Below, piece after piece: positions 10,849-46,366 of a stretch of 64,000 bases of DNA. A program made the translations under genes and the position numbers. The first letter of the stretch is position 1; the number at the start of each line of letters is the position of its first letter. The notes beneath the pieces are model-generated. The model did not search any database, was not told where the DNA came from, and saw nothing but the letters and a program-made list of their open reading frames with translations. The DNA is from Gammaproteobacteria bacterium (GTDB lineage: Bacteria > Pseudomonadota > Gammaproteobacteria > Pseudomonadales > Pseudohongiellaceae), in assembly GCA_040218615.1 (NCBI GenBank), contig JAVJRC010000004.1, forward strand, positions 77,659 to 141,658, written 5' to 3'.

Positions 10849-10868
10849 GAAGCCTATCCAGGATTAGC

Positions 10869-12002
10869 ATGTCAGAAACACTCGACCTGGCCACCCGGCT
10901 GATTGCCCTCCCGTCGGTTACACCCGACGACAATGGTTGCCAACAACTCATTGCCGAGCGTTTGAGCAAGCTCGGATTTAGCATCGAACACCTGCCCTTC
11001 GGGGAAGTCCACAACCTTTGGGCAACCCTGGGAGATTCTGGTCCGCTGCTGCTGTTTGCCGGCCACACCGACGTGGTGCCTCCCGGCCCACTGGATGCCT
11101 GGAGTTACGATCCTTTTACCCCGACACAGGTCGACGGACTGCTCTACGGGCGCGGCAGTGCCGACATGAAAGGCAGCCTGGCGGCAATGATCACAGCCGC
11201 TGAGCGATTACTTGCGGCTGGTCCCGCATTGAGTGGCAGACTGGGGTTTCTGATTACCAGTGATGAAGAAGGTGCCGCCATTGACGGCACCCGGGCCGTG
11301 GTTAATTTATTGCTTGAGCGCGGTGAACGCGTCGACTTTTGCGTCGTTGGCGAACCGAGCTGCAGCCAGGCGCTGGGCGATACCATTCGTATCGGTCGCA
11401 GAGGATCACTGAGTTGCAAACTTGTTGTGAAAGGAATCGAAGGCCACGTGGCCTATGCACAATTAGCCCGCAATCCCATCCACCAGTCACTGGCGGCGCT
11501 GGAGGAACTCAGCAGCAAGTCCTGGGATGAAGGCAACGAAGCCTTTCCTCCAACCAGCTTTCAAATTTCCAACATCCACGCGGGTGTCGGTGCCAATAAT
11601 GTGATACCTGGAACTATGGAAGTCGACTTCAATATCAGGTACTGCACCGAGCAGACTGCCGAAGGGTTAGAACAAGCTGTAAATACCATACTCGAATCAC
11701 ACAATCTTGATTTCGAATGCCATTGGCATCTTTCCGGCGAACCCTTTGTTACCACAGAAAAAGGCTTTGTCGATCTGGTAGCGGCTGCGGTCAAGAACAA
11801 CACCGGCGTGGATCCAGAGCGATCAACCGGCGGCGGCACATCCGATGGCAGGTTCATCACCTGGCTTGGTCCTGATATCGTCGAGTTCGGGCCCTGCAAC
11901 GGGTCTATTCACAAGGTCGATGAACACGTGCGCATGGACGATCTGGACCGGATTTCCAGTATTTATCAGGACATCATGGAGCAGGTGCTGCGCTCAGCCT
12001 GA
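10869..12002 (+). CDS. dapE: Succinyl-diaminopimelate desuccinylase
   Basis: 377 aa M20 peptidase (LLFAGHTDVVPPG, GRGSADMKG, ITSDEEG). Confidence 0.93.
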   Translation: MSETLDLATRLIALPSVTPDDNGCQQLIAERLSKLGFSIEHLPFGEVHNLWATLGDSGPLLLFAGHTDVVPPGPLDAWSYDPFTPTQVDGLLYGRGSADMKGSLAAMITAAERLLAAGPALSGRLGFLITSDEEGAAIDGTRAVVNLLLERGERVDFCVVGEPSCSQALGDTIRIGRRGSLSCKLVVKGIEGHVAYAQLARNPIHQSLAALEELSSKSWDEGNEAFPPTSFQISNIHAGVGANNVIPGTMEVDFNIRYCTEQTAEGLEQAVNTILESHNLDFECHWHLSGEPFVTTEKGFVDLVAAAVKNNTGVDPERSTGGGTSDGRFITWLGPDIVEFGPCNGSIHKVDEHVRMDDLDRISSIYQDIMEQVLRSA

Positions 12003-14607: not shown

Positions 14608-15948
14608 CTAGCGCTTCTTGCGACGTGCCGTTTTGCGTTTGGCCGTTTTGCGCTTGGCGGTTTTCCTTTTCGCCTTCTTGCGCGCTGGCTTACGCTTGGC
14701 TGTCTTCTTCTTGGCCTTCTTTTTAGCCTTCTTCTTCGCAGCTTTCTTTTTGCGAGCCGGCTTACGCTTGACTACTTTTTTCTTCGCCTTCTTTTTGCGT
14801 GCTGGCTTGCGCTTGGCGGTTTTCTTCTTCGCCTTGCGCTTCGCTGCTTTCTTCTTGCGAGCTGGCTTACGCTTGGCTGCCTTGCGCTTGGCTACTTTCT
14901 TCTTAGCCTTCTTCTTGGCTGCCTTCTTCTTGCGTGCCGGCTTGCGCTTGGCGGTTTTCTTCTTCGCCTTACGCTTGGCTACTTTCTTCTTGGCCTTCTT
15001 CTTGGTTGCTTTGCGCTTGGCTGTCTTCTTCTTAGCCTTCTTTTTAGTTGGCTTGCGCTTGGCAACTTTACGCTTCGCAGCTTTCTTGGCTGCTGCTCTG
15101 CGCTTCACAGACTTCCGCTTGGCAGTCTTCTTTTTGGCCTTCTTTTTGGCTTTTTTCTTGGCCTTCTTGCGACCAGGAGCCTTTTTCTTAGCCTTCTTGC
15201 GACCAGGCGCTTTCTTCTTCGCCTTACGCTTGGCTACTTTTTTCTTAGCCTTCTTTTTAGCCTTTTTCTTGGCCTTTTTCTTTCGGGCCGGCTTGCGCTT
15301 GGCGGTTTTTTTCTTCGCCTTACGCTTGGCTACTTTCTTTTTGGCTTTCTTCTTGGCCTTCTTCTTGGTGGCCTTACGCTTGGCAGTTTTCTTCTTCGCC
15401 TTACGCTTGGCTACCTTCTTTTTGGCCTTTTTCTTGGTTGCTTTGCGCTTGGCAGTCTTCTTCTTGGCCTTCTTCTTAGCCTTTTTCTTGACTGTCTTGC
15501 GCTTGGCAACTTTACGCTTCGCAGCTTTCTTCGCGGCCGCTCTGCGCTTCACTTTCTTCTTCGCTTTCTTTTTGGCTTTGCTGACCTTCTTCTTGGCTTT
15601 CTTTTTGGCCTTGCTAGCCTTCTTTTTCACTTTCTTTTTGGCCTTGCTGACCTTTTTCTTGGCCTTGCGAACCTTCTTCTTCACCTTTTTCTTGGCTTTG
15701 CCCGCTTTTTTCTTGGCCTTTTTCTTCGCCTTACTTACCTTCTTTTTGGCTTTTTTCTTGGCCTTACTGACCTTTTTCTTTGCGGCTTTCTTTTTGGCAG
15801 TGGCTTTACGCTTTACTGCCGCCTTTTTCTTGGCAACTTTCTTCTTCGCAGTCGTTGCTTTACGCTTCGCTGCTACCTTCTTCTTGGCAACCTTCTTCTT
15901 AGCTGCTGCCTTTTTCTTCGCAACTTTCTTTTTCGCTTTCTTAGCCAT
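14608..15948 (-). CDS. Extreme polycationic Lys/Ala/Arg repeat protein (histone-H1/AlgP-like composition)
   Basis: 446 aa ORF with ATG preceded by GAGG. The translation uses only M, A, K, R, V, T, S, G and P. A terminator lies downstream. The equal-length plus-strand ORF is a mirror artefact. Confidence 0.7.
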   Translation of the reverse strand: MAKKAKKKVAKKKAAAKKKVAKKKVAAKRKATTAKKKVAKKKAAVKRKATAKKKAAKKKVSKAKKKAKKKVSKAKKKAKKKAGKAKKKVKKKVRKAKKKVSKAKKKVKKKASKAKKKAKKKVSKAKKKAKKKVKRRAAAKKAAKRKVAKRKTVKKKAKKKAKKKTAKRKATKKKAKKKVAKRKAKKKTAKRKATKKKAKKKAKKKVAKRKAKKKTAKRKPARKKKAKKKAKKKAKKKVAKRKAKKKAPGRKKAKKKAPGRKKAKKKAKKKAKKKTAKRKSVKRRAAAKKAAKRKVAKRKPTKKKAKKKTAKRKATKKKAKKKVAKRKAKKKTAKRKPARKKKAAKKKAKKKVAKRKAAKRKPARKKKAAKRKAKKKTAKRKPARKKKAKKKVVKRKPARKKKAAKKKAKKKAKKKTAKRKPARKKAKRKTAKRKTAKRKTARRKKR

Positions 15949-16107
15949 TTTTGACCTCGCTACCTAATGTCAAGTTACATTACAGAGTACTGCTAAATTT
16001 GCTCCCAACGGCGTTTGTCAGTGCTGCCTGACTTCCCTTTCCCAGCTGACGCCCTCCGCTTGGAGACACCCTTCTTTACAATCGCCTGCTTCCTGGCAAA
16101 CGATTTC

Positions 16108-16845
16108 CTAACCGGTTTTCCTGCCCGCCCGCTTCTTACCCGCAGGGTTCTTACGCTTGGCTCGTTTTGTAGACGCCTTTTTGACTGGTTTCTTGCCACC
16201 CTTTTTGCCAGCAGCTTTCTTGCCAGCTTTCTTTGCAGCCTTTTTCGCAGCCTTTTCTACCTTGCGTTGCGCAGCTCTCCGAGCTGCCGCTTTCGCCTTT
16301 GTGGCTACTTTCCTGGCGTCTTCTTTCTCTTTCTTCTTTGCAGCGTTTTTTGCTGCAATTCTTGCCTTTAATGCGTCTTTTCGGGCTTGTCGGGCTGCTT
16401 TAGCTGCGTCTGCCTTGGCACGTTTCCGTTTCCACCTGGCAGTAAACGCGTCTATAGCACGCTGCAAGTCTTCTTCTGCTCTGGCTGCTTCAGCCTCTCT
16501 TCTTGCTTTTTCCTTTTCTGCGAGTTCTATTGCCCTCGCTTTAGCTTTGGCAGTTCGAATTCTTGCCTTTATCGCCGCCACCTTGGTGGCCGCTTTTAAT
16601 TTTGCGTTTTTAGCACTCTGCGCTGCTCTTTTACTGGCAGCTGTTTTCTTTTTCGACGCAGCCTTCTTCGCAGCTGTCGCCTTCTTCCCGGCTGCAGTGA
16701 GTAATTTCTCCGCAGCCTCGGCCTTGTCTTCCAAACTGGCAACAGCAGCCCTGGCTTTTAATAGCGCCTTGCTGCTCGTTTTGTTACCACTTCTACGGCC
16801 CTTCTTCTTTTTAGTAGCAGCAGGTTTCTTTTTAGCTTTAACCAT
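16108..16845 (-). CDS. Basic Ala/Lys-rich coiled-coil protein with polylysine termini
   Basis: 245 aa, MVKAKKKPAATKKKKG... Central charged A/K/E/R heptad-like region, then C-terminal KKAAKKAGKKAAGKKGGKK. No obvious RBS. Confidence 0.6.
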   Translation of the reverse strand: MVKAKKKPAATKKKKGRRSGNKTSSKALLKARAAVASLEDKAEAAEKLLTAAGKKATAAKKAASKKKTAASKRAAQSAKNAKLKAATKVAAIKARIRTAKAKARAIELAEKEKARREAEAARAEEDLQRAIDAFTARWKRKRAKADAAKAARQARKDALKARIAAKNAAKKKEKEDARKVATKAKAAARRAAQRKVEKAAKKAAKKAGKKAAGKKGGKKPVKKASTKRAKRKNPAGKKRAGRKTG

Positions 16846-17304
16846 AAAATTGTCTGGTTATTTCAAAGTCGATGTTGCATGACATGATTTTAACGCAACA
16901 TCAACCCACTGCTCGCGGGCAACATATCACAATTTTTATTTAGCAAACAACAAACTAACGCTTAAAACACACTAAATAAAAAAAACTTTTGTTTGGTTCA
17001 CGCATGATGCCCACAGAATCATGGTATCAATCACTTATTTCGCTAGCTGAAGAGAAAACTTTAAGAAAACTGTGCGGGTATTGTTGTAATTACAATAAAA
17101 CTGCACAAACTTTGTACAAAGTTGTGATGTTTCAGCACCTGAAAATGCTATTTAAAAGACTTAACAACCGTAGACAAAGAAAATGCACATGCGATTCGCG
17201 TAAATAAGTTAGCAATTTATCTGCCAACTTTACTGTTTTAATGTGTTGCAGCTAACAAATCGTTTAAAAAACTCACGCGCGACTAAAATTTGACGTCCAA
17301 AACG

Positions 17305-17338
17305 AAAAAGCCTGCTCCAATGTGAAGCAGGCTTTTTT
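17305..17338 (-). terminator. Intrinsic (bidirectional-looking) terminator downstream of adk
   Basis: AAGCCUGCU / AGCAGGCUU 9 bp stem flanked by an A-run and a T-run, 29 nt beyond the adk stop. Confidence 0.75.
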
Positions 17339-17366
17339 CGAAGTGCACTTTGTTATTGTGGATAAC

Positions 17367-18068
<702 letters not shown>

Positions 18069-34923: not shown

Positions 34924-35000
34924 TGGTGTCCCCGGGCCGATTTGAACGGCCGACCTAGCGCTTAGGAGGCGCTTGCTCTATCCAGCTGAGCTACGGGGAC
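34924..35000 (-). tRNA. tRNA-Arg (anticodon CCU)
   Basis: The minus strand reads GTCCCCGTAGCTCAGCTGGATAGAGCAAGCGCCTCCTAAGCGCTAGGTCGGCCGTTCAAATCGGCCCGGGGACACCA. Cloverleaf with 7 bp acceptor stem, CT-CCT-AA anticodon loop, TTCAAAT T-loop and encoded CCA. Confidence 0.93.
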
Positions 35001-35076
35001 ACGGGGCGCAAGTATATACTGTGGTCACTTTCACGACGAGAACCTGCCCTGCCCAGTCTTGTGCCCGGACAAAATC

Positions 35077-35781
35077 ATGCTCAGCGTTGTATTGCCCACC
35101 TTTAATGAAAGCCGTTGTGACTGTCTGCAGGAGATCCTGCGCAATCTTCAACAGCTCGTTCAGGACAGCGACGCCCAGGTAATTATTGTGGACGGCAGCA
35201 GCACTGATTCCACCCTGGACCAGATTGCCCAACATCAATTTGAGCCACTGACCGAAGCTGGCTCTTCGCGGGCTGCCCGACTCAATCGCGGTCTCGAGGC
35301 AAGCACGGGTGAGCTGGTGTTACTGCATCACCCACGCAGTGTTGTGGAGCTGCCAACCCTGCTCAGCCTGGAATCCATGGCCGCCAGCCACGAGGCTGAC
35401 TGGGGAAGTCTCACTCATCGGTTTGACCTGGACCACCCCCTGCTGAGATTTACTTCCTGGTACTCAAACAGGATTCGTGGCGATCTCCGTGGCATTTTCT
35501 ATCTCGATCATTGTATTTTTCTGCATCGAAGATTGATCGATCAGGGTATTCGGGTCCCGGAAGTGCCCATCTTTGAAGACACCAGGTTGTCACGGTTGTT
35601 ACGTAAACATGCAAAGCCGGTGCGCCTGCAGCAGCCATCGACGACTTCCGCGATTCGTTTTCAGCGTAATGGCATTTATCGCCAGGCTTTGCTGAACCAG
35701 CTGGTTAAAGTTGCGCACATGCTGAGAGTGCCGACACAAACAATTAATCGACTGTATGAGAAAGGCTTAAACCTGAATTGA
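35077..35781 (+). CDS. Family 2 glycosyltransferase of the rSAM/arsenosugar-associated type
   Basis: MLSVVLPTFNES...VIIVDGSSTDST N-terminus, then FEDTRLSRLL and TSAIRFQRNG in the C-terminal half. From memory this resembles the TIGR04283 family. Convergent with arsS. Confidence 0.65.
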   Translation: MLSVVLPTFNESRCDCLQEILRNLQQLVQDSDAQVIIVDGSSTDSTLDQIAQHQFEPLTEAGSSRAARLNRGLEASTGELVLLHHPRSVVELPTLLSLESMAASHEADWGSLTHRFDLDHPLLRFTSWYSNRIRGDLRGIFYLDHCIFLHRRLIDQGIRVPEVPIFEDTRLSRLLRKHAKPVRLQQPSTTSAIRFQRNGIYRQALLNQLVKVAHMLRVPTQTINRLYEKGLNLN

Positions 35782-35803: not shown

Positions 35804-36772
35804 CTAGGACGAACAGCTACCGCCACCCAGTACGCAAAATTTTGCACAGTGAGGGTGATTCAGTTTTACGCTTTGCCATGATTGCTTGAGCGAGGTTCCC
35901 AAGTTAAAGCGCTGGTCATAGGGCAGCAAGGTACAGGCTTGCACCGACAGATGGTCGTCACCCTTGTGCTTAACCACCATGCGCGAGCTTGCACACATGA
36001 TATCGGCTGGATCTACCTTGAGAATCCCCCAGCAAGCCGTGGTGATTTCTGGCACATCCACCGAGTCATCCATCTCGGGGAAGAGCACCAACTCCTCCGG
36101 ATTGTTTGCATCCAGGCTGATATTTTCCCGGGCAAACATGTCCCCGTAACCGGTGCGCATACTGGCCTCGTCTTCTTCCCACATGGTGCGCCCGGCTACC
36201 GCAAAATCGATATCGGATCCACTCAACCACTGTAGTGATTCAATGGCGGGCTTCCAGGATCGCTTGCCACGCTCCAGTGCATGGGTTTCTTCAAGGTAGT
36301 GATCCAGTGAAATACGCAATCGCAGCAGACCGGGAAAGGCTGCCCTCAGTCGTTCCAGTTTGTCGCGTTCGCGCAGCAGCGTCTTCATGCCATTGGTCAG
36401 TATCAGGGTTTTAAAACCACCGCGGAGACAGAGCTCGATAATGGCAACCATGTCCGGATTGAGAAATGGCTCGCCCCCGGTGAAGGCGATTTCCTCGGTA
36501 CCGAATTTCTCGGCTACGATTTCGTCGATTAACTGCTGCACTTCGTCAGCAGTAATATAGACAAGCCGGTCATTGGTAGGACTGGATTCTATATAACAGT
36601 TCTCACAGGTGAGATTACAGAGGCTGCCGGTATTGATCCAAAGAGTCTTGAGCCGGCGCGGATCTACGCTGGCACGGACTTCTCCATCCAGGGTGCGATC
36701 AGGATCGACAAACTTGCCCTGGCTGCGCGCCGAACTGTCGGTGATGTCCTGAATATTCAGTTTTTCATTCAT
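35804..36772 (-). CDS. arsS: Arsenosugar-biosynthesis-type radical SAM protein ArsS
   Basis: 322 aa with CNLTCENCY (CxxxCxxC) rSAM cluster and Cys-rich C-terminus HCAKFCVLGGGSCSS. Immediately downstream of arsM. Confidence 0.78.
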   Translation of the reverse strand: MNEKLNIQDITDSSARSQGKFVDPDRTLDGEVRASVDPRRLKTLWINTGSLCNLTCENCYIESSPTNDRLVYITADEVQQLIDEIVAEKFGTEEIAFTGGEPFLNPDMVAIIELCLRGGFKTLILTNGMKTLLRERDKLERLRAAFPGLLRLRISLDHYLEETHALERGKRSWKPAIESLQWLSGSDIDFAVAGRTMWEEDEASMRTGYGDMFARENISLDANNPEELVLFPEMDDSVDVPEITTACWGILKVDPADIMCASSRMVVKHKGDDHLSVQACTLLPYDQRFNLGTSLKQSWQSVKLNHPHCAKFCVLGGGSCSS

Positions 36773-36800: not shown

Positions 36801-37874
36801 CTAACAGCAGGATGACGACCCTGAAGATCGATCGGCATCAGCCTGCTGCTGGTAAGGCATGTCTGTTCCACAGTCGGGAAAGATGCCGTAGTGGGTGGAA
36901 AAGTCGCCATAAAACTCAAAATATTGCTCAAAGCGAGTGTTCTGCAACATCATCAGGGTATTGCCACAGACAGGTGTGATCCTGCCTTTCTCGAACAGGT
37001 GGTGGTCATCCAGCTGGAAGAAATTCTCCTGCTCCTCTACTCCGCCCAGATACTTGATTGCCTGACCATAATCCTCACAAGCAGGTTCCAGCTCAGGCAG
37101 TTTGAAGAGCCGATAGGTGACGGAATAGAACTGATAAGCTTCCAGCCTGGCGGCCAGGGCGTCATTTTCAACACTGATACCATGGGATTCCACGATTCGT
37201 GGATCGTTGAAACCGCACTCTTTGGCCAGGTTTTGAAAATCATTCCAGTACAACGCGCCTCCAAGGCATTCGCCGTAGAGTTCCCGATCCTGGGCCAGCT
37301 CCGGCGGCAGACGGCGATTACAATACACATCGGAAAAATAGAATTCACCGCCCTCTTTCAACACCCTGAATGCTTCAGCCAATACAGCACGCTTGTCAGT
37401 GGCCAGGTTGACAACACAATTGGAAACGATGACATCGAACTGCGCGGATTCTATTCCTGCAGCACCCAGATCCTGAATATTGCCTTTCACGAACCTGACA
37501 TTGGCCTGACTGAATCCGAATTTTTCCCGATGCCACTCCACATGCCGGTTGGCAATTTCCAGTTGCTCATCGGTCATGTCAATTCCGGTAACGGAGCCTT
37601 CTTCACCCACCAGTTGCGACAGGAGATAACAATCGCGCCCGGTGCCACTGCCCAAATCCAGCACATCAAGCCCTTGTATCGAGGTTGGAATAGTCAGGCC
37701 ACAGCCGTAATAACGGGTTAGCACTTCTTCGTGGATATTGGCCAGCGCCTGCTTGATGCTTTGTGGATACTGGACTACCGTGCAGCAGACATTGGTTTTC
37801 AGATCCTCGCTACTTTGCAATTCCTTGCCATAGTAGTCACGCACCTCTGCTTCCACCTTGCTCATCTCATTCAT
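36801..37874 (-). CDS. arsM: Arsenite S-adenosylmethionine methyltransferase ArsM-like
   Basis: 357 aa with VLDLGSGTGRD SAM motif. Cysteines sit at the ArsM-typical places (NVCCT, YYGCG, SNCVVNL, GECLGG). Confidence 0.78.
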   Translation of the reverse strand: MNEMSKVEAEVRDYYGKELQSSEDLKTNVCCTVVQYPQSIKQALANIHEEVLTRYYGCGLTIPTSIQGLDVLDLGSGTGRDCYLLSQLVGEEGSVTGIDMTDEQLEIANRHVEWHREKFGFSQANVRFVKGNIQDLGAAGIESAQFDVIVSNCVVNLATDKRAVLAEAFRVLKEGGEFYFSDVYCNRRLPPELAQDRELYGECLGGALYWNDFQNLAKECGFNDPRIVESHGISVENDALAARLEAYQFYSVTYRLFKLPELEPACEDYGQAIKYLGGVEEQENFFQLDDHHLFEKGRITPVCGNTLMMLQNTRFEQYFEFYGDFSTHYGIFPDCGTDMPYQQQADADRSSGSSSCC

Positions 37875-38148
37875 TGCTGTTTCCTGTTCCTGCTCCCGCT
37901 TTCGCGCCTATGTTCTCATGCCTCGTTCCCGGGCGCACTTCAGAGGCTGCCAGGGACCCACAATTCCGAGTCTCGTCCCTCAGTAGACCCCAATACGGCA
38001 GATTTCCTTCAACGGCAATTTTCCGTGCCGGTTCCCAGACCTGCCCTACTCAACCAAGGCTACGGTTTAAGGTTATACTGGAGCAGGCAGGTACTGGCGG
38101 TTGATCCAACAACCCGCAGGATGCCAGTGGCGCTATTCCTTACTCGAT

Positions 38149-39681
38149 ATGACTGAAAACACCGAAACACTACTCGCACAGCTACAGCAAGCGAAGCAAC
38201 AGCTCGAGGCTGGAGATTCCGCTGGAGCCACCTCTCTCTACACCGAAGTCGCCCAGCAGGCAGGAGATGACCTGCTGGTCAATCTGCACCTGGCACAGCT
38301 TTGTACCGCCATGGGTAACGCCAGCGCCGCTGAATCGCATCTGCAAACAATCATTGCGCAGGAAACAGATGACCTGGAACTGCTCGTTACAGCTGCAAAA
38401 TGCCTGGGTGAAATTAACCTGCACGACAAGGGCATAAGCCTGGCAAGAAGAGCTGTTGCCATTGATCCGGAAAATCCCGACGCACTTTCAGCGCTGGGTA
38501 GCCTGCTGGTGGAAGCCGGAAAGACTGAAGAAGCCCAGGATCATCTTTTGCACATGATAGAAAAGCGCAAGAACCTGCGACTGGCATATACCAATCTGGC
38601 CCGCCTGAGAAAATTCACCTCCGAAGACAGCACCCTGATCGATCAGGCGGAAGCTGTCATTGCTGATGGCCTGCCTGCCCGGGAGCAACTGGCAGTCAAC
38701 TTTGCCCTGGGAAAGATCTACGATGATTGCCGTGAGTTCCACAAGGCATTTCCCCATTTCCAGCAAGCCAACGAACTGCAAAAAGAAGCCCATGACCACA
38801 ACAACGATTTAAACTGGTTTAAACAGATCAACACTGTTTTTACCGAAGGCACGATCGGCCGCCTTAGCGAAGGTGGCCACCAGTCCAGCCAACCGGTCTT
38901 TATCGTCGGCATGCCCCGCTCGGGCACCACACTTATGGAGCGGATAATCGCCAGTCATTCCCAGGGGGCAGGCGCTGGGGAATTGTTGGCAATGCCACGA
39001 ATTGCCCATCAAATCATGCGGGAGAATGAGGTTAGGCCAGCAGAGCGAGCACAACGGAGAATGACGCCTGATCTCATGGCAGGTTACAGCAATTACTATT
39101 TGCAAACCCTGCGACTCGGGCAGCCACCGGCACAACGTATCGTCGACAAGCTGCCAGGCAATTACCAGAACCTGGGTTTGATTCACGCACTGTTTCCCAA
39201 TGCCTCAATTGTTCATGCAGTCCGTCATCCACTGGATACCTGCCTGTCTTGCTATTTTCAGGCCTTCGCCGAAGTCCGTTGGTCCAACGACCTGAAAACC
39301 ATTGCTGACACCTATAAGCTCTACCGGGAATATATGAAGTATTGGCAAAAAGTCCTGCCTCGCGGCAAGATTCTGGAGGTTCAGTATGAGGCGCTGGTCG
39401 AAAACCCGACCGAAGAAGGGCAGCGCATGTTGAACCATTGCGGCTTGAGCTGGGAAGCAGAAAGCCTGGAATATCACCAACAACAGGCAGTGGTGAGAAC
39501 CGTAAGTCATGCCCAGGTCCGACAACCCATTTACCAAACTTCCAGAAAGCGCTGGATGAATTATGCCAAGCATATCCAGCCGCTGGTCGATGAACTCACT
39601 GAGTATCTGAAAGAAGACCAGGCAATGCTGGAAGAGAATGGCCTCAAGCTAAAAAAGAAGAAGCGATTCGGTCTTTTCTGA
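38149..39681 (+). CDS. TPR-repeat sulfotransferase family protein
   Basis: N-terminal half is TPR-like helical repeats. C-terminal half has FIVGMPRSGTTL (PAPS 5'-phosphosulfate-binding loop) and VRHPLDTCLSCY. ATG at 38149. Confidence 0.75.
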   Translation: MTENTETLLAQLQQAKQQLEAGDSAGATSLYTEVAQQAGDDLLVNLHLAQLCTAMGNASAAESHLQTIIAQETDDLELLVTAAKCLGEINLHDKGISLARRAVAIDPENPDALSALGSLLVEAGKTEEAQDHLLHMIEKRKNLRLAYTNLARLRKFTSEDSTLIDQAEAVIADGLPAREQLAVNFALGKIYDDCREFHKAFPHFQQANELQKEAHDHNNDLNWFKQINTVFTEGTIGRLSEGGHQSSQPVFIVGMPRSGTTLMERIIASHSQGAGAGELLAMPRIAHQIMRENEVRPAERAQRRMTPDLMAGYSNYYLQTLRLGQPPAQRIVDKLPGNYQNLGLIHALFPNASIVHAVRHPLDTCLSCYFQAFAEVRWSNDLKTIADTYKLYREYMKYWQKVLPRGKILEVQYEALVENPTEEGQRMLNHCGLSWEAESLEYHQQQAVVRTVSHAQVRQPIYQTSRKRWMNYAKHIQPLVDELTEYLKEDQAMLEENGLKLKKKKRFGLF

Positions 39682-39738
39682 GCTTGAAATCATTGTCTAA
39701 TCAAAGCAATCACTATCCAGAGCATTGCGAGAGCACTC

Positions 39739-41622
39739 ATGAACTGGTCCTATAACAAGTTGTCTCTGGTGCTATTCGCGGGACTGGCGATACTGACTGC
39801 GGTCATTTACTGGCCCGGACTACACGGCGGTTTCATACTCGATGATTTTCCCAATCTGGCACTGCTTTCCATGCTGCCCGCGGATGCCAATGTTGCGCAA
39901 ATACTGAACCTGTCCACCAATGGCATCGCCAGCGAGCTGGGCAGGCCATTGTCCCTGCTAAGCTTTCTCGTGCAAGCCTCATCCTGGCCTGATGATCCGT
40001 TCAGCTTCAAGCTGGTCAACCTGTTTATACACTTGCTCAATGCCGGGCTGTTGCTGTTGTTTTTTACGCTTCTCTTCCGGGCAAACCCCAGCCTGAAGAT
40101 CAAGCCCCTCTACTTGTTGGCACTGCTTTCCTTTTGGCTGTTACACCCGATCAATGTTTCCAGCGTGCTCTATGTCGTGCAGCGAATGAACCTGCTTGCT
40201 TCCCTGTTTGTGCTGTCAGGCCTGGTCAGTTATTTATGGTGCCGGATTCGATTCCTGGAATCAGGTGGGCGTGGCTATTTTGCTGCGGCTGTCATTTCTC
40301 CGTCGATCATGTTCGTGCTCGGAGTATTGAGCAAGGAGAATGCTGCCCTGCTCTATCTGTATCTGGCGGTGATGGAAGTCACTTTGCTGGATGAAAGCCG
40401 AACAACTACCAAAGCTGGAAAGCTCAGCCAGTTGGCTGTGTTCCTCCCGCTCTTGCTGGGCATTTTGGCTTTTGTATTTTATGTGCCAGGGGTGCTGGAG
40501 GCGTATCAGCAGAAGCCATTCACATTGATCGAGCGCAGCCTGTCCCAGTTCGCCGTGCTACTAAGCTATTTGTCGAATATTCTGTTTCCGTTTCCTGACC
40601 GGTTCGGTTTGTTCCACGATGACTTCCCGGTTTACGGGTCAGTGGCTAACCTTGCTGTCGTTTTTTCGGTCGCTATTGTCCTGTTCTTGTTAGTCGCGGC
40701 CATCCGAAAGCGCAAATCACAGCCTGTGCTGAGTTTCGCGGTGTTGTGGTTTTTTGCTGGCCACGCGCTGGAATCTACCATTCTGCCGTTGGAACTGTAT
40801 TTTGAGCATCGCAATTACTTGCCAGCGGTCGGCGTGCTATTCGCCTTGATCTGGCTGCTGCAAAAGGGAGAGACCCTTTTCACCGGCACTGAGAGAATCG
40901 TCACCCGCAGTTTTACTCTGATCTTTCTGTGCTGGTTTGCAACTATCACCGTGCTGGAATCATTTCTGTGGGGGGACTCGATGACACAGGCTTACGTGGA
41001 GGTGGAAAGGCACCCCGAATCTTACCGTGCCAGCACGCACCTGGTGCAAACCGTCACCAGCAGTGGTGATCCCCAATCAGGTTTTCAACTGCACAGGCAA
41101 CTGATGGGCTCCGACAGCAATCGTGTTGGTGATTATCTTCGCTGGCTGGAGTTTGGCTGCATTTTGCAGAACCTCGAGTTGCCTGCCCAAAATGAACTGC
41201 AAGCAGTTGCCGCCAATGCCCCTATGGAATTCACCGCCATAGCACAACTCAATCGGCTGCTGCCTGCAGTGCTGAATGGTTCCTGCCCCGGCACGCTGCT
41301 ACCCGGACTAATTGTCACGATCGAGGCTTTGCTGCAGAACGAAAATTTTGCTTTCTCAAGAGCAGATCTGCTGTATGCCCTCGCCACGGTCTATGACGCA
41401 CAGGGAAATTTGAGCCGTGCAACGGAACTGGGGCAGCAGTCGTTCTCTCTCAGGCCCGGAATCAGCACCGGATTAGTGCTACTGAATTGGCTAATCGAAT
41501 CGGATAACCTGGAAGCAGCCAGGGTCTTATTGCAGCAGTTTGAATCGGAGTTTGCCCTGGAGATTGCCAGCAGAGCAGGCTTGCGCAATCAGCTTGCAGC
41601 TATTGCCGAGCGGCTCGATTGA
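39739..41622 (+). CDS. Polytopic membrane protein with C-terminal TPR domain (GT-C / PMT-TMTC-like)
   Basis: 627 aa with at least 10 predicted TM helices. ILDDFPN follows TM1, similar to the GT-C first-loop acidic motif. The C-terminal ~200 aa are helical repeats. Confidence 0.6.
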   Translation: MNWSYNKLSLVLFAGLAILTAVIYWPGLHGGFILDDFPNLALLSMLPADANVAQILNLSTNGIASELGRPLSLLSFLVQASSWPDDPFSFKLVNLFIHLLNAGLLLLFFTLLFRANPSLKIKPLYLLALLSFWLLHPINVSSVLYVVQRMNLLASLFVLSGLVSYLWCRIRFLESGGRGYFAAAVISPSIMFVLGVLSKENAALLYLYLAVMEVTLLDESRTTTKAGKLSQLAVFLPLLLGILAFVFYVPGVLEAYQQKPFTLIERSLSQFAVLLSYLSNILFPFPDRFGLFHDDFPVYGSVANLAVVFSVAIVLFLLVAAIRKRKSQPVLSFAVLWFFAGHALESTILPLELYFEHRNYLPAVGVLFALIWLLQKGETLFTGTERIVTRSFTLIFLCWFATITVLESFLWGDSMTQAYVEVERHPESYRASTHLVQTVTSSGDPQSGFQLHRQLMGSDSNRVGDYLRWLEFGCILQNLELPAQNELQAVAANAPMEFTAIAQLNRLLPAVLNGSCPGTLLPGLIVTIEALLQNENFAFSRADLLYALATVYDAQGNLSRATELGQQSFSLRPGISTGLVLLNWLIESDNLEAARVLLQQFESEFALEIASRAGLRNQLAAIAERLD

Positions 41623-41756
41623 GCCGATGAGCCTGTCCTGAAATTCCAGCAACACCGCCCTCGTCACAGAAATTACCCTGAAATCAGGGGACATTCCCAG
41701 TGTTCTGGCTTAACTTATTGCCCGGACACAAGACAGCCTGGATAACTGCGTTACCT

Positions 41757-44546
41757 ATGGATCAGCAAAAAAGTTTCATCAGCTACTCAACAGCCGCATT
41801 TTTCCTGTCCGGATGTTCGGCTCTCATCTTCGAAACAGTTTGGTTCCGGGCTGCCAGTGTCGCGCTTGGCACGACTGTCTGGAGTGCCGCAGTGGTGCTC
41901 ATGGCTTTCATGACCGGATTGGGGCTCGGCAATGCAGTCGTCGCTTTCCAGGGGCACAAAATACACAGCCCCGTTCGATTCTATGTCCTGATCGAAATCC
42001 TTATTGGTATCAGCGGTCTGGCCGCGGTGTTTCTCCTGCCAGGAGTCTCTGGCTTTGCGGCTTCCATGCTGGCAGGCCTGACCGAAAACGGCCTGTTGCT
42101 TAATGCCGCGAGGTTTTTCATCGCCTTCCTTGTCCTTTTGGTTCCAGCGACCGCCATGGGAGCCACCTTACCGGTTCTGCACAAAGCCCTGCACCGCGTT
42201 GAACAATCCTTTTCATCTTCAATCGCCAGACTTTATGGCTGGAATACTCTGGGCGCTGTAGTCGGCACACTGGCGGCTGAATTTTTCCTGATTTATTGGT
42301 TGGGCCTGAACGCTGTAGGGGTAGTCGCCTGCCTGCTGAACCTGCTGGCAGCACTGCTGCTGTTTAATTTGTTTGGTGGTGAGTTTCCAAGCTTTGACAG
42401 CAATGGCAACGAACTAGGTAAAAAGTCTTTACCACAGGCATCATGGCTGCTGATACCACCGGCAGTGATCGGTATGTCCTTGCTGGCACTGGAGATCATC
42501 TGGTTCCGTTATCTGCTGCTTACCCAGAACGAGTCAAGCACGCTATTCGCCACTATGTTGGCCATTGTCCTGGTGGGCATCGCCATGGGCGGATTGCTGG
42601 TGTCTCGAATCCGCACCTTTGCTGACAGGCTGTCGGCTAGCCTGGCCATCATTCCCGTTGTCGCCGCAGCGAGCACGGTGGCTGGCCTTGTTGCCTTTCA
42701 GTTTCTGTATTCAAACTATCTTCCTCAACTGAGGGAAAGCTTTGGATTCTTTACGCTGGCGGCGATGGTGTTGATGCTGCCTACCAGCATCGCTTCCGGC
42801 ATTCTCTTTCCACTGTATGGCGAGCGTTTCTACCAACATTACGGAGTAGACACCCAGGCCTCGGGCATGTTGACCGTGTCCAATACCCTGGGTGCAGCGC
42901 TGGGTTCCTCCCTGGCAACGCTGGTGCTGCTGCCATTACTTGGTATTGAACGCTCCCTATTGTTAATCGTCACGCTCTATTTGCTGGTAGCACTGCTGTC
43001 CATGACGCCAGCTATCACCACCGGGCTTGTGACTAAGTTCAAGGCAACGACAGTGATCGCATCAATACTGGTGCTGGCACTGTTTCCATTCGGATCCTTG
43101 CAACGCTCCTACCAAGTGTTTGACAGCTTTCTGCCTGACATGGAATTGGTAGCAGTGAATGAAAGCCTCTATTCGACTCTGCAATATTACGAAATTCGGC
43201 GGCTCGGTCAGATTGAGTCCTATCGGCTGGTGACCAATGGGTATTCCATGTCCGGCACCGATTTTTCGGGCGAGAGATACATGAAGCTTTTCGCCTATCT
43301 CCCGGCAATTCTGCACGGCAACCTCCAGGACATACTGCTGATCAGCTATGGAGTGGGGAATACAGCGGAAGCCGCAACAAACTTGTCCACCTTGCAATCA
43401 CTCGACATTGTGGATGTCTCAGAAGAGATCGTTGAGATGAGCCGACCGTTTCACCAAGTGATTGGTTACGATCCGCTGGATGACCCCAGGACAGAAGTGC
43501 ACATTGATGACGGTCGGTTTTTCCTCCAAACCACAGACAGAAAATATGACCTGATCACTGGCGAGCCTCCCCCACCCAAGGCACCGATGATTGTCAACCT
43601 GTACTCAAAAGAATTCTTCGAACTGACCTACGAGCATTTGAATCCGGGTGGCATGATCAGTTACTGGTTGCCCATCCACGATCTGCACGACAGTGACTCA
43701 ATTGCCATCATCAAGGCGTTCTGCGAGGTTTACCGGGATTGCAGCCTGTGGAATGGCTACAATATGGATTGGATTTTATTAGGTAGCCGAGATGGCCTGC
43801 CTGCCATGGATGAACAGGTGCTGCAGGAAAATTGGGCGCGCTATGCAAACCAGGAACTGAGTGACATCGGCATTGAAACTCGAGGATTGCTCGGTGCCAC
43901 ATTCATGGCCGATGCGGCAGAACTCAATCGCCTGAGCCAGCGCTTTCTTCCCGTTACCGACAACTACCCGCAAAGGATCTCGCCCTCTACACAGGGTATG
44001 CTGGACCCGTCACCGCTGTACGCGCATTTACTCAATATAGACACCAGAAAACAGCGATTTCGTGAGAGCGATTACATCAATTTTCTGCTGCCGAACAGTT
44101 TTCGGCAAGAAGTGAACCAGGCCTTCGAATATGAACGCATTGCCAGTCTGGTAGCCCTAAACCCTCACATGGATTATACGCTTCCCTATTACTGGGATGG
44201 CTTGAGTCAGCTAATGGAGGATTCCCAATTGAGAGTTCTGCCGCTGCTGCTGTTGGGGAGTAATCCCAGAGAGCAATCGATTCGAGCGGGAATGCGGGAT
44301 GGAACAGATCTGAATACTCGCGCTGCCTTGATTAAACATCTCCTGGTAGAGCGCGACTATGCAGCGCTGGAGCTTGAAGCCGAAAGATATTTGCGCATTG
44401 AAACCGATCAAAATACGCGACTTTTTATCAGCCAGATCCAGATGCTGGCAAAAGCTTTGCAGGGCACGCTGTCTGATTCGGATGTACAAAACTCTTTAGC
44501 AGCCAGCGATGCTCGATTCGTTGACTGGATCAAAGCCAAGTACTAG
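41757..44546 (+). CDS. Fused polytopic membrane domain / spermidine-synthase-like protein
   Basis: N-terminal ~470 aa is multi-TM. The central domain has ILLISYGVGNTAEA and YDLITGEPPPP, a class I SAM/dcSAM-binding spermidine-synthase pattern. The C-terminus is helical. The start could be ATG 41757 or GTG 41700. Confidence 0.7.
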   Translation: MDQQKSFISYSTAAFFLSGCSALIFETVWFRAASVALGTTVWSAAVVLMAFMTGLGLGNAVVAFQGHKIHSPVRFYVLIEILIGISGLAAVFLLPGVSGFAASMLAGLTENGLLLNAARFFIAFLVLLVPATAMGATLPVLHKALHRVEQSFSSSIARLYGWNTLGAVVGTLAAEFFLIYWLGLNAVGVVACLLNLLAALLLFNLFGGEFPSFDSNGNELGKKSLPQASWLLIPPAVIGMSLLALEIIWFRYLLLTQNESSTLFATMLAIVLVGIAMGGLLVSRIRTFADRLSASLAIIPVVAAASTVAGLVAFQFLYSNYLPQLRESFGFFTLAAMVLMLPTSIASGILFPLYGERFYQHYGVDTQASGMLTVSNTLGAALGSSLATLVLLPLLGIERSLLLIVTLYLLVALLSMTPAITTGLVTKFKATTVIASILVLALFPFGSLQRSYQVFDSFLPDMELVAVNESLYSTLQYYEIRRLGQIESYRLVTNGYSMSGTDFSGERYMKLFAYLPAILHGNLQDILLISYGVGNTAEAATNLSTLQSLDIVDVSEEIVEMSRPFHQVIGYDPLDDPRTEVHIDDGRFFLQTTDRKYDLITGEPPPPKAPMIVNLYSKEFFELTYEHLNPGGMISYWLPIHDLHDSDSIAIIKAFCEVYRDCSLWNGYNMDWILLGSRDGLPAMDEQVLQENWARYANQELSDIGIETRGLLGATFMADAAELNRLSQRFLPVTDNYPQRISPSTQGMLDPSPLYAHLLNIDTRKQRFRESDYINFLLPNSFRQEVNQAFEYERIASLVALNPHMDYTLPYYWDGLSQLMEDSQLRVLPLLLLGSNPREQSIRAGMRDGTDLNTRAALIKHLLVERDYAALELEAERYLRIETDQNTRLFISQIQMLAKALQGTLSDSDVQNSLAASDARFVDWIKAKY

Positions 44547-44824
44547 GGGGCAATTCTTCACATTCAGCCCGAGGTTGCTTCTTGCGAAAAACAGAATTGC
44601 CCACCTAGCACCAGCAAAATGTAGTCGGATTGAGCATATCGGAATCAGTGCAAACATCTAGCAAACCACAGGTGGACAAGCGGTTTACCGAAGTTTACTG
44701 CCCGGGGTTTAGCAAGCGATCTATGGAAAGGACCCTTCCAGATAAGCACTAACTCGTTGTTTCCCTTCATTTTGTGCTAAATTGCGGCGCTGCAGAGAAA
44801 ATCAGCAATCTGCAAGGAACCCCC

Positions 44825-45292
44825 ATGTCTCAACTCCACTGGGAATGCCGACGATTCAGCGAATTGTCCCTCGAACAACTCTATGCCCTGCTGCAACTGC
44901 GGGCCGAGGTGTTCGTGTTGGAGCAGCAATGCCCCTACCAGGATCCGGATGGTAATGACCAGGAGGCGCTGCATGTGCTGGGTGCGGCTGACGGGAAATT
45001 ACTGGCCTATACCCGCTTGCTGCCCCCTGGTATCAGATATGAGGGCTGCTCCATTGGCCGTGTGGTGACAAGCCCGGAAATTCGTGGAGATGGAACAGGT
45101 CGGCAACTGATGGAGAAATCTATCCAGTATTGCCACGAGAACTGGGGCGAATCGGACATCACAATTTCTGCTCAGCAATACCTGGAAAAGTTCTATAATG
45201 GGCTGGGATTTGAAACAGAATCCGAGCCATACCAGGAAGACGGAATACCTCATGTCCAGATGCGACTCCCCGCCAGCAAACAGAGTGACTAG
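44825..45292 (+). CDS. elaA: GNAT family N-acetyltransferase ElaA
   Basis: LSLEQLYALLQLRAEVFVLEQQCPYQDPDG...YQEDGIPHVQM is closely parallel to E. coli ElaA. Confidence 0.85.
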   Translation: MSQLHWECRRFSELSLEQLYALLQLRAEVFVLEQQCPYQDPDGNDQEALHVLGAADGKLLAYTRLLPPGIRYEGCSIGRVVTSPEIRGDGTGRQLMEKSIQYCHENWGESDITISAQQYLEKFYNGLGFETESEPYQEDGIPHVQMRLPASKQSD

Positions 45293-45295
45293 TCT

Positions 45296-46366
45296 TTGAG
45301 CCAGAATGAAGACAAGCTGGAATTCGATTTCGAGCGAATATCCATACTGTTTACCAACACAACCACAGGGTATGTAGGTATTGCCGCTGCCAGTTGCAGC
45401 ATGGCTTTTCTTATAGCCATCATGGCGACACCTGAATATGCCATTGCCTGGTTGCTGGCCATGTTTCTTAGCTATGTTCCCAGGATACTTCTTTCTATCA
45501 GCTTTAAACGCAAACTGGCTACTGGTGAAATCGACAAGAACAATATCGGCGCTTGGGAAAACCACTTTTTCAATTTCAGTATCGTACCCTTTGTCTGCTT
45601 TGCCCTGGCCGTAATAATCCCCTACGGGCCGAATATCCTCACCAGCTTGTTGTTTTATGCCATTGCCATGATGGCGCTAGTTGCCGGCGGCATTCTGACC
45701 TACAGCACCTCGCTGCCTGCCATCATGTTGTTTCTCCACGTGGCCATGCTGCCACTGATCGGCAGAATTTTGTTTGTTGAAGGCATACTGGCCAATGCCT
45801 TGCTGGTGATCCTGATCATCAGCTACGTGATGTTGATCAGGCTTATCCCCAGGCAGAACCGGGTGTTGCTGGAAAACATTGCCCTGAAAATCGAAAACAG
45901 GTCACAGTCCCTTACCGACCCATTGACGAGGCTGGCGAACAGAAGACGTCTCTACCTTTTCATGGAAGACCTGGCACCTGTATCCGAACGCCAAAAAGAT
46001 CCGTTTACCATCGTCTTGCTGGATGTGGATCATTTCAAGAAATACAACGACACCTACGGACACAGCGCGGGGGATGAGCTACTCATCAAACTGGCAAGAA
46101 TCCTCACCGACTGCTCACGTGACCAGGACCTGGTTGTGCGCTACGGTGGAGAGGAATTTTTGTTGGTATTGCCCTCGACTAAACTGGAAGCAGCAAAAGT
46201 CGTCTGCAATCGTATAAGCGAAGCCGTCAAGCAACAAACAGACGTAACCATAAGCGGCGGACTCGCCATGCAATCCGAAGGGACGCCTTTCGAAGAGTTA
46301 ATTGAACAGGCAGATGCCAAGCTCTATGAGGCGAAGGAAAGCGGGCGAGATGCGATTCTTGCCTAG
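45296..46366 (+). CDS. Membrane-anchored diguanylate cyclase (GGDEF)
   Basis: 5-6 TM N-terminus, then a GGDEF domain with RYGGEEFLLVLP active site. The TTG start at 45296 is uncertain. Confidence 0.85.
   Translation: MSQNEDKLEFDFERISILFTNTTTGYVGIAAASCSMAFLIAIMATPEYAIAWLLAMFLSYVPRILLSISFKRKLATGEIDKNNIGAWENHFFNFSIVPFVCFALAVIIPYGPNILTSLLFYAIAMMALVAGGILTYSTSLPAIMLFLHVAMLPLIGRILFVEGILANALLVILIISYVMLIRLIPRQNRVLLENIALKIENRSQSLTDPLTRLANRRRLYLFMEDLAPVSERQKDPFTIVLLDVDHFKKYNDTYGHSAGDELLIKLARILTDCSRDQDLVVRYGGEEFLLVLPSTKLEAAKVVCNRISEAVKQQTDVTISGGLAMQSEGTPFEELIEQADAKLYEAKESGRDAILA

Follow-up and report, generated by a model that had tools for sequence, protein, structure and literature searches.

Within the window (the whole 64,000-nt stretch of gammaproteobacterial DNA that was analysed), three co-oriented genes on the forward strand, hereafter the trio, lie divergently to a gene for an ArsM-like methyltransferase (Table 1). 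The open reading frames, the intergenic gaps of 57 and 134 bp and the domain assignments of all three products agree with a preliminary description made from the DNA sequence, and the divergent control region, given there as ~275 bp, measures 274 bp. The ATG start codon of gene 1 is backed by an alignment with the starts of its orthologues, and for gene 3 the start at 41757 is that of entry P0001 (929 aa) in the protein collection.

Table 1. Features of the trio locus and its surroundings (positions in the window)
Feature	Position	Strand	Description or basis
GT2	35059-35781	+	neighbour, outside trio
Radical-SAM	35804-36772	-	neighbour, outside trio
ArsM-like methyltransferase	36801-37874	-	neighbour, outside trio
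Divergent spacer, arsM-like gene/gene 1	37875-38148		sequence reading and alignment with five relatives
Gene 1	38149-39681 (alternative TTG start 38101)	+	TPR and PAPS-type sulfotransferase
Gene 2	39739-41622	+	TMTC-like GT-C membrane protein with TPR tail
Gene 3	41757-44546 (alternative GTG start 41700)	+	13-TM fused MFS/spermidine synthase with helical tail
GNAT acetyltransferase	44774-45292	+	Pfam; downstream of trio, co-oriented
GGDEF diguanylate cyclase	45296-46366	+	Pfam; downstream of trio, co-oriented

The spacer contains a conserved motif proximal to the arsM-like gene, AGTAGACC...ATTTCCTTCAA, at about 37982-38012; since the alignment with five relatives reveals that the motif AGTAGACC/ATTTCCTTC is retained even in G024, a genome devoid of trio genes, we assign it to the arsM side. 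Upstream of gene 1 there is a -10-like TATACT at 38074-38079, and the same alignment places the sequence GGTTATA(C/A)T repeatedly 5' of gene 1 orthologues. A consensus promoter scan of the spacer gave no match. Within the trio, neither a terminator nor a promoter could be convincingly identified, and a search of sequencing runs for this DNA recovered no RNA run; the three genes may be co-transcribed.

In the product of gene 1 (510 aa), an N-terminal TPR array occupies approximately residues 1-235 and is followed by a TPST-like sulfotransferase domain of the PAPS type (approximately residues 245-480), with Pfam matches to Sulfotransfer_3 (E 6.5e-45), Sulfotransfer_1 (6.4e-16) and several TPR families. 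Its nearest solved relatives are the TPR domain of OGT (E 2.5e-14) and, for the catalytic domain, the protein-tyrosine sulfotransferases 1 and 2 (TPST1/2, PDB codes: 3ap1 and 5wri; E 7e-9 to 1.6e-7). The two PAPS-binding motifs of TPST1/2 and Sulfotransfer_3 are retained as PRSGTT (256-261) and RHPLDTCLS (359-367), whereas the overall identity to the TPSTs is low and, unlike these enzymes, the protein is joined to an OGT-like TPR array and is predicted to be cytoplasmic, there being no hydrophobic segment at its N-terminus. APS kinase is encoded twice in the genome. The best reading of gene 1 is thus a PAPS-dependent, TPST-like sulfotransferase, and the combination of a TPST-nearest catalytic domain with an OGT-like TPR array suggests that its acceptor would be a protein rather than a small molecule.

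Gene 2 encodes a polytopic inner-membrane protein of 627 aa, in which a TMTC/PMT-like GT-C membrane domain (approximately residues 1-412) precedes a C-terminal TPR domain (about 414-626) that is predicted to be periplasmic. No Pfam or NCBIfam model, DUF1736 and PMT included, matches the protein itself; the TPRs were detected through a profile search against the PDB and through Pfam matches of homologues. The TMTC signature residues, namely, D35-D36 after TM1, G68-R69-P, K199-E200 and FEHRNY (355-360), are invariant in all 24 homologues compared, as are two Cys residues in the tail, C474 and C516. The protein resembles TMTC1-4 and the PMT clan (TMTC motifs according to PMC7801869): outer loop 1 bears a DD motif, R-P and K-E motifs are likewise located in outer loops, and the membrane domain is N-terminal to TPRs that would lie on the non-cytoplasmic side of the membrane. 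It differs from TMTC1-4 in being bacterial, in lacking a DUF1736 or PMT match and in the weakness of its fold match to solved GT-C enzymes: for the AlphaFold model (pLDDT 87.7), the best full-length matches are STT3/OST GT-C chains with TM scores of 0.33-0.37 and E about 0.04, which counts against the enzymatic assignment. Some sources label homologues 'protein O-mannosyl-transferase'. We propose that gene 2 specifies a TMTC/PMT-like GT-C glycosyltransferase that would draw on a polyprenyl-phosphate sugar donor and present both its active site and its TPR tail to the periplasm.

The product of gene 3 has 929 aa (948 aa if the GTG start is used), scores 69.8 bits with the NCBIfam model NF037959, 'fused MFS/spermidine synthase' (cut-off 40), and matches Pfam Spermine_synth over residues 526-655. 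Hundreds of full-length homologues from many phyla agree with it in length and architecture, and no feature sets it apart from NF037959, an uncharacterised subfamily. The arrangement in the preliminary description, a membrane domain fused to a spermidine-synthase-like domain with a helical tail, stands, but its count of ~12 TM segments requires revision: there are 13 hydrophobic helices, of which 12 form a 6+6 internal repeat and one is additional, followed by a SpeE-fold domain (~466-700) and the tail (~700-948; 948-aa numbering). In the AlphaFold model (pLDDT 84.2), the SpeE fold is complete, including the N-terminal beta-hairpin domain, and was recovered by Foldseek with E 5e-8 and target-relative TM scores reaching 0.72. 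Across 20 family members, the loops on the N-terminal side of the membrane carry 13.1 Lys plus Arg and those on the other side 1.95, and the number of TM helices is odd; on the positive-inside rule and hydrophobicity, the C-terminal part (SpeE-like domain and tail) is predicted to be periplasmic. Against this topology, the DSSP string of the model gives residues 384-433 as a single long helix. If the prediction is correct, the 12-TM transporter-like domain and the extra helix would together place the SpeE-fold domain and the helical tail in the periplasm.

With canonical SpeE (PDB codes: 1uir, 2hte and 3o4f), the gene 3 domain shares the fold and the adenosyl-binding residues (G551/G553, D572 and D604, all invariant). 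The Cys pair C675/C681 is invariant in the family of gene 3 as well. The resemblance to spermidine synthases, in the Pfam and NCBIfam matches and in the full fold, might point to a bona fide aminopropyltransferase anchored in the membrane and active at the envelope, where it would synthesise or attach a polyamine. However, a profile alignment places V552, an invariant Val throughout the family, at the dcSAM-selecting Asp of GGGDGG, and an invariant E622-PPPP at DSSDP, such that the second catalytic, diamine-binding Asp is Pro; unlike SpeE, the domain is also membrane-fused and predicted to be periplasmic. Additionally, no gene of the AdoMet_dc family (SAM decarboxylase) is present in the 99.8%-complete genome, in which the positive controls were detected. 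Given the missing dcSAM-specific Asp and the absence of a SAM decarboxylase, aminopropylation by gene 3, which the preliminary description had entertained, is very unlikely. A precedent for a different activity is provided by NHMT (AN4663), a fungal N-terminal histidine methyltransferase that acts on secreted proteins and in which 7 TM helices are followed by a SpeE-like methyltransferase domain whose GxG(D/E)G motif is without its acidic residue (PMC10349129). A hydrophobic residue takes this position in both proteins (Ile in NHMT, V552 in gene 3) and, as compared by layout and motif, the counterpart of NHMT in gene 3 is TM7-13 together with the SpeE-like domain; gene 3 has in addition six N-terminal helices and the long helical tail. 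Shorn of its dcSAM-specific and diamine-binding residues, the SpeE-like domain would most likely transfer a methyl group from SAM, as does NHMT.

The genes across the spacer recall the cyanobacterial arsenosugar genes ArsM/ArsS (NF038099, TIGR04167 and TIGR04283) in that an ArsM-like methyltransferase is accompanied by a small GT2 and a radical-SAM enzyme, but all three fall well under the curated cut-offs: the methyltransferase scores 90 against 400 for the AsSugarArsM model, the GT2 135 against 182 for TIGR04283 and the radical-SAM protein, named arsS in the preliminary description, 58 bits against 300 for the ArsS model TIGR04167. The usual company of this radical-SAM family is apaG, folE or metZ, not arsM, and an arsM-like gene is found at only 4 of its 80 loci.

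Comparison with relatives reveals that the slot between the ArsM-like and GNAT genes is variable, holding 0, 1, 2 or 3 trio genes in nested order. Synteny with G024, a genome of the same genus, extends from rpoE/nadB to ygiQ, yet there the arsM-like gene abuts GNAT (L031), divergently and without the trio; L148 likewise combines GT2, radical-SAM and arsM with an adjoining divergent GNAT gene and no trio gene. A partial trio is seen in L141 (arsM, gene 1, GNAT) and in two separate assemblies, L136 and L137 (gene 1, gene 2, GNAT), whereas L134 and L135 have all three genes. The GGDEF gene is absent from G024 and present in L141, L136 and L134. Gene 1 is divergent to arsM in the window and in L134, L140, L141, L142 and L143 (63-89% identity). 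About 10 same-genus genomes possess the radical-SAM gene and lack gene 3. Three genomes (G008, G018 and G023) have 45% gene-2 homologues and no radical-SAM gene, and in L144 gene-2 paralogues are inserted singly into otherwise syntenic DNA. The next-closest homologues of genes 1 and 2 are solitary and lie in unrelated contexts.

Beyond this one lineage, the trio is not linked to ArsM-like, radical-SAM or GT2 genes. None of these occurs within 10 kb of gene-3 orthologues at any of 85 loci, which have no conserved neighbour of any kind, and no gene of type 1, 2 or 3 occurs at 80 loci of the radical-SAM family. HMM searches found a gene-2-type protein at 2 and a TPR-sulfotransferase at 1 of the 85 gene-3 loci; at one locus (L063), a TPR-sulfotransferase directly follows the gene-3 orthologue. 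Genes of types 2 and 3 are adjacent in G023 and near one another in G034, and, among 41 related genomes, all 6 with a gene-3-type protein also encode a gene-2-type protein (hypergeometric p about 2e-4, a value that ignores phylogeny).

Taken together, the data favour, with a probability of roughly 0.6, the view that three accessory genes, each inherited separately, have come to lie next to one another in this lineage and form no arsenic module and no conserved pathway. The preliminary description had proposed instead a module for the late steps or the export of arsenosugar-type products, in which the SpeE-like pocket binds 5'-dimethylarsinoyl-adenosine and the GT-C protein passes the product to an envelope acceptor. 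Such a role would fit the physical adjacency, the shared divergent spacer, the invariant adenosyl-binding residues and the presence of algal metagenomes among the DNA runs containing this sequence, but is highly improbable: in G024 and L148 the arsM cluster has no trio beside it and in L141 just part of one, each trio gene is widespread without arsM or radical-SAM, a distribution which the preliminary description had itself named as counting against the module, the radical-SAM enzyme falls far short of the ArsS cut-off and comes from a family seldom found beside arsM, and a periplasmic location is predicted for the SpeE-like domain. A tie of gene 1 alone to the ArsM-like, radical-SAM and GT2 genes, for example through sulfation of their product, with genes 2 and 3 as later, unrelated insertions, is somewhat less improbable, albeit still unlikely. 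Gene 1 lies innermost, has been retained more persistently than the other two and is beside arsM in every lineage that has it, although the whole region is equally syntenic, and a PAPS supply is present; however, all cases of its adjacency to arsM share one synteny block and therefore represent a single evolutionary event, the arsM cluster and its conserved motif are kept where gene 1 is missing, no TPR-sulfotransferase was found near other same-genus radical-SAM loci or at the 80 family loci, and the domain make-up suggests protein acceptors.

A single coherent pathway is the most plausible of the alternatives, although unlikely: repeat-guided sulfation, O-glycosylation and methylation of one shared target, either exported protein(s) or an envelope polymer, assembled by stepwise recruitment into one operon. 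The co-orientation, the short gaps with no clear terminator between them, the nested gene content (1, 1+2, 1+2+3), the TPR or helical tails on all three proteins, the L063 arrangement and the co-occurrence of types 2 and 3, with their proximity in G023 and G034, all point that way, and some of these count against separate inheritance: the nested pattern and common repeat-tail design could reflect joint recruitment for one purpose, and the 6 of 6 genomes and the G023 adjacency are further points of this kind. On the other side, linkage outside the lineage is rare, relatives exist without gene 3 or without genes 2 and 3, gene 1 is predicted to act in the cytoplasm and genes 2 and 3 in the periplasm, and no candidate substrate gene was found inside the cluster. 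The fallback in the preliminary description, an envelope-modification system unrelated to arsenic, fits the evidence as regards arsenic-independence and action at the envelope; the notion of a conserved system does not survive.

All three products would be group-transfer enzymes with a tail of TPRs or helical repeats. Their closest characterised relatives, tyrosylprotein sulfotransferase, the TMTC/PMT O-mannosyltransferases and fungal NHMT, all modify proteins, suggesting protein acceptors rather than glycans or lipids. The trio members, which adjoin one another in a single small bacterial lineage, come from three large, unstudied enzyme families and are probably three independent, protein-directed transferases.

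The three genes of the trio are co-oriented, with gaps of 57 and 134 bp, and are presumably co-transcribed; across a spacer of 274 bp lies a divergent gene for an ArsM-like methyltransferase (see table). Because the ORFs, the gaps and the domains of genes 1 and 3 were all recovered, the preliminary description proved correct in its reading of the sequence, including the divergent neighbour. An Rfam scan of 34.4-45.4 kb found no riboswitch or leader RNA (a tRNA was the sole match), a promoter and terminator scan of the trio region was uninformative, and a small-ORF search of the spacer between gene 3 and the GNAT gene yielded no credible substrate peptide. In an alignment of the spacer, the motif AGTAGACC(N about 12)ATTTCCTTCAA, at about 37982-38012, lies some 110-140 bp in front of the ArsM-like gene and is conserved in every syntenic relative, among them the complete genome G024, which has no trio. 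Possibly it serves the arsM-rSAM operon (rSAM, radical SAM) as an operator or promoter. In the same alignment, gene 1 orthologues are preceded by a -10-like element of their own, GGTTATA(C/A)T.

Features of the trio locus (positions in the window)
Feature	Position	Strand	Remarks
tRNA	34927-35000		Rfam scan
GT2 gene	35059-35781		convergent with the radical-SAM gene
Radical-SAM gene	35804-36772	-	next after the ArsM-like gene
ArsM-like methyltransferase gene	36801-37874		divergent from the trio
Gene 1	38149-39681	+	TPR repeats and Sulfotransfer_3 domain
Gene 2	39739-41622	+	no Pfam or NCBIfam match of its own
Gene 3	41757-44546	+	NF037959, with a Pfam Spermine_synth segment
GGDEF diguanylate cyclase gene	45296-46366	+	3 bp after the GNAT gene

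The relationship of the trio to the arsenic-type genes was examined in relatives chosen by their common chromosomal neighbourhood (rpoE, nadB, ygfZ ... GNAT, putP, ygiQ) and ranked by the similarity of the flanking genes. The closest two loci, L134 and L135 (putP 96% identical), have the same arrangement as the window: GT2-rSAM-arsM, then gene1-gene2-gene3-GNAT-GGDEF. Gene 3 is missing from L136 and L137 (88%; two independent assemblies), which read gene1-gene2-GNAT-GGDEF, and in L141 (83%) GT2-rSAM-arsM is followed by gene1-GNAT-GGDEF, gene 1 being the only member of the trio. Finally, in G024 (80%) and at locus L148, arsM is directly divergent from the GNAT gene, and none of the three is present. 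The arsM cluster is thus found with 0, 1, 2 or 3 trio genes. The GGDEF gene is variable too: it is missing between GNAT and putP in G024 and present in L141, L136 and L134, so that genes turn over at a small hotspot between arsM and putP. The trio and gene 3 are not flanked by any meaningful direct or inverted repeats, and in relatives that have part of the trio or none of it, the spacers preserve nothing of genes 2 or 3; consequently, stepwise gain and stepwise loss are equally parsimonious (about three events each). The nested arrangement itself is lineage-specific and a minor curiosity.

Wider surveys agree in finding the two sets of genes apart. The rSAM gene (50-75% identity) is carried by about 10 same-genus genomes among 40 related genomes, and none of these ten or so has gene 3; the best gene-2 homologues reside in three genomes (G008, G018 and G023) that all lack the rSAM gene; and TPR-sulfotransferase paralogues in these related genomes lie on other contigs than the rSAM gene, or megabases away from it. 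Gene-3 orthologues occur at 523 places in species-representative genomes from many phyla, and at the 85 of these loci that could be inspected with their flanks, no arsM-, rSAM- or GT2-like gene falls within 10 kb. Conversely, relatives of the rSAM protein, which is of a very widespread family, are encoded at no fewer than 547 metagenome loci; among the best 80 of these (51-70% identity), HMM searches found no gene 1-, 2- or 3-type neighbour, and an ArsM-like gene near just four. The recurrent neighbours are instead apaG-, folE-, trkH- and metZ-like, as assigned by eye from example sequences rather than by family search. The rarity of this rSAM family beside ArsM-like genes agrees with its low model scores: the rSAM protein, taken for ArsS in the preliminary description, reaches 58.1 bits against the ArsS model TIGR04167 (cut-off 300) and has no Pfam match to DUF3641, and its best NCBIfam match is to an Rv1681-type rSAM (95.5 bits), under the cut-off of that model as well. 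Given that the neighbouring methyltransferase and GT2 protein likewise score under the arsenosugar-specific cut-offs, the 'arsM-arsS' premise itself is shaky.

The idea that the trio supplies a missing late-step or export module of an arsenosugar pathway is, therefore, refuted by comparative genomics: an arsM cluster that carries anything from none to all of the trio genes, and the lack of linkage at 85 gene-3 loci and 80 rSAM loci, lead us to reject it as an accessory module of an ArsM/ArsS pathway, and the co-occurrence that had been proposed as a check did not materialize. We also found no paper in which arsenosugar genes are connected with a sulfotransferase or a glycosyltransferase. In all likelihood, the trio has nothing to do with arsenic metabolism; neither the sulfotransferase nor genes 2 and 3 should be counted as candidate late arsenosugar steps, and the 'arsS' neighbour should not be equated with ArsS untested, as its identity calls for re-examination. 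The fallback, that the genes have no part in arsenic metabolism and modify the envelope, agrees with the evidence, but the trio is not conserved as a system. In profile searches, a gene-2-type membrane domain is present at 2 of 85 gene-3 loci and a TPR-sulfotransferase at one (L063), and neighbour clustering in 80 loci identified no recurrent partner of gene 3. Beyond the syntenic group, the closest gene-3 homologues (62%) occupy unrelated contexts, one of them beside an integrase fragment and a YoeB/YefM pair, and homologues of gene 2 (45-51% identity) and gene 1 (42-51%) are solitary. Locus L144, otherwise collinear with 214-231 kb of C12, a contig of the window's own genome, has two singly inserted gene-2 paralogues (10001-11890, 51% identical to gene 2; 15468-17420, 31%), and gene-2-family genes appear to be gained or lost one at a time. 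There is a weak hint that the gene-2 and gene-3 families are associated: of 41 genomes, six encode a gene-3-type protein, and every one of the six encodes a gene-2-type protein too (a count uncorrected for phylogeny), and the two types of gene are adjacent in genome G023 and share a contig in genome G034.

Two other loci are of note for their composition. A 29-kb contig of G034 (C37; L042/L043) encodes at least three TPR-tailed membrane proteins, two or three of which match gene 2, along with a multihaem cytochrome and an NF037959-type protein, so that these families are clustered more densely than in the window. In L063 (366-11641), from a low-GC MAG, a TPR-sulfotransferase of 578 aa has three NF037959 paralogues around it, of 1059, 940 and 1000 aa; this is the sole other adjacency of gene-3 and gene-1 types among the 85 loci.

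Taken singly, each of the three genes is an unremarkable member of a large family, named or recognizable, of putative function. Gene 1 matches Sulfotransfer_3 with an E-value of 6.5e-45 (154.5 bits; Pfam cut-off 27) and presents both PAPS motifs, the 5'-PSB (PRSGTT, 256-261) and the 3'-PB (RHPLDxxxS, 359-367); on score and motifs together, it classes as a PAPS-dependent sulfotransferase. The closest solved relatives of the catalytic domain are the protein-tyrosine sulfotransferases 1/2 (E 7e-9 to 1.6e-7), and that of the TPR array is the superhelix of O-GlcNAc transferase (E 2.5e-14). It has no signal sequence, and the genome encodes two APS kinases. Elsewhere, on two unrelated metagenome contigs, an ORF of 108-110 aa with no Pfam match (L146, 7637-7963; L147, 7649-7981) lies 20-38 bp upstream of a same-strand TPR-sulfotransferase gene whose product shares 42-46% identity with gene 1, and might encode a small, conserved partner or a substrate.

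In the confident model of gene 2 (pLDDT 87.7), a TPR solenoid comes after a polytopic membrane domain. Across 24 homologues, D35-D36 just after TM1, G68-R69-P, K199-E200 (SKEN) and FEHRNY are invariant, as are two Cys residues in the tail. In the TMTC/PMT clan, the Lys-Glu motif of an outer loop is presumed to bind the lipid-linked donor by its phosphate. The TMTC O-mannosyltransferases of the GT-C/PMT clan are defined by DD, '...YRP' and 'KE...' motifs, the DD (or DE) motif being located in the first extracytoplasmic loop (PMC7801869). D35-D36 and G68-R69-P answer to the first two of these, and K199-E200 is likened to KET(Q)xxT by motif position alone, with no structural superposition (PMC7801869). 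Pfam PMT, PMT_2 and DUF1736 gave no match, and DUF6056 matched three homologues. Over the full length, Foldseek aligns the model best, but weakly, with STT3 chains (TM 0.33-0.37, E 0.035-0.05) and, as the fold search is dominated by TPR matches, a GT-C fold is weakly supported. The logic of the DD loop, together with the invariant Cys pair, would place the TPR domain on the non-cytoplasmic side.

Gene 3 belongs to NF037959, 'fused MFS/spermidine synthase' (69.8 bits; NCBIfam cut-off 40), and its homologues (37-62% identity) are full-length, with both the membrane domain and the SpeE-like domain. In the model (pLDDT 84), the soluble domain adopts the full aminopropyltransferase fold (Foldseek to SpeE, E 4.5e-8; TM 0.6-0.72 relative to the target). 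In a profile alignment to spermidine synthases, V552, invariant in 20 family members, occupies the position at which GGGDGG has its Asp, the residue selective for decarboxylated SAM (dcSAM), and E622-P-P-P-P, invariant in the family, stands in place of D-S-S-D-P, the catalytic, diamine-binding Asp pair. The Gly and Asp residues that bind the adenosyl moiety are retained. Moreover, the 99.8%-complete genome has no match to PF02675 (AdoMet_dc), which is matched in seven control genomes. The suggestion that the trio might aminopropylate the envelope thus finds neither the canonical SpeE residues nor an AdoMet_dc-type enzyme. The same genome has a 314-aa ORF at C12:406714-407118 (minus strand) that matches Pfam Spermine_synth (43 bits); either this is another non-canonical SpeE-like protein, or the genome may possess an unrecognized route to dcSAM.

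The membrane domain of gene 3 has 13 hydrophobic helices, a 6+6 internal repeat plus one, with E-x-x-W-F-R motifs at 45-50 and 265-270 marking the repeat. Loops on the N-terminal side carry an average of 13.1 Lys+Arg in 20 family members versus 1.95 on the other side; on this basis, and given the odd number of helices, the SpeE-like domain, in which the Cys pair C675/C681 is invariant, and the helical tail are predicted to be periplasmic. TM7-13 plus the SpeE-like domain match PRK03612. One enzyme of this design has been characterized, the fungal N-terminal histidine methyltransferase NHMT, which methylates the N-terminal histidine of secreted LPMOs and consists of seven TM helices and a SpeE-like domain with Ile at the acidic position of GxG(D/E)G (PMC10349129); the corresponding features of gene 3 are TM7-13 and V552. 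We found no paper on a 'fused MFS/spermidine synthase' or a membrane-bound spermidine synthase.

Taken together, these features suggest three independent transferases, each guided by its repeats, with proteins as the most likely acceptors: gene 1 would sulfate its acceptors in the cytoplasm, gene 2 would glycosylate in the periplasm using a polyprenyl-phosphate sugar donor, and gene 3 would carry out a SAM-dependent periplasmic methylation. We assign a probability of about 0.4 to the trio being protein-modifying enzymes. A more ambitious version has the trio as a dedicated decoration line by which a marine bacterium associated with algae would modify one common set of secreted or envelope proteins, with tyrosine-type sulfation by the TPR-guided gene 1 before export and, after export, periplasm-facing O-glycosylation by the TMTC-like gene 2 and methylation by the SpeE-derived gene 3, supplied with SAM via its own fused transporter domain. 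This we consider improbable; were it true, it would entail SAM-dependent chemistry outside the bacterial cytoplasm, itself new. In relation to the habitat, DNA near-identical to 38149-44546 (57-63% of sampled words) was found in sequencing runs labelled as algae or macroalgae metagenomes, which hints that members of this lineage live in the sea in association with algae. Among RNA runs, looked at for signs of an operon or of induction by arsenic, none contained the trio locus.

The remaining value of the locus lies with its families: there are very many TPR-sulfotransferases, bacterial TMTC-like GT-C proteins and NF037959 proteins, all of putative function. The sole part of the trio with real upside is the predicted periplasm-facing SpeE-like domain of gene 3. 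The genome has a single copy each of genes 2 and 3, and close relatives are naturally without them, which would make this strain convenient for testing periplasmic SAM chemistry; if the SpeE-like domain of NF037959 proteins does work in the periplasm, SAM-type chemistry would take place outside the cytoplasm in bacteria.
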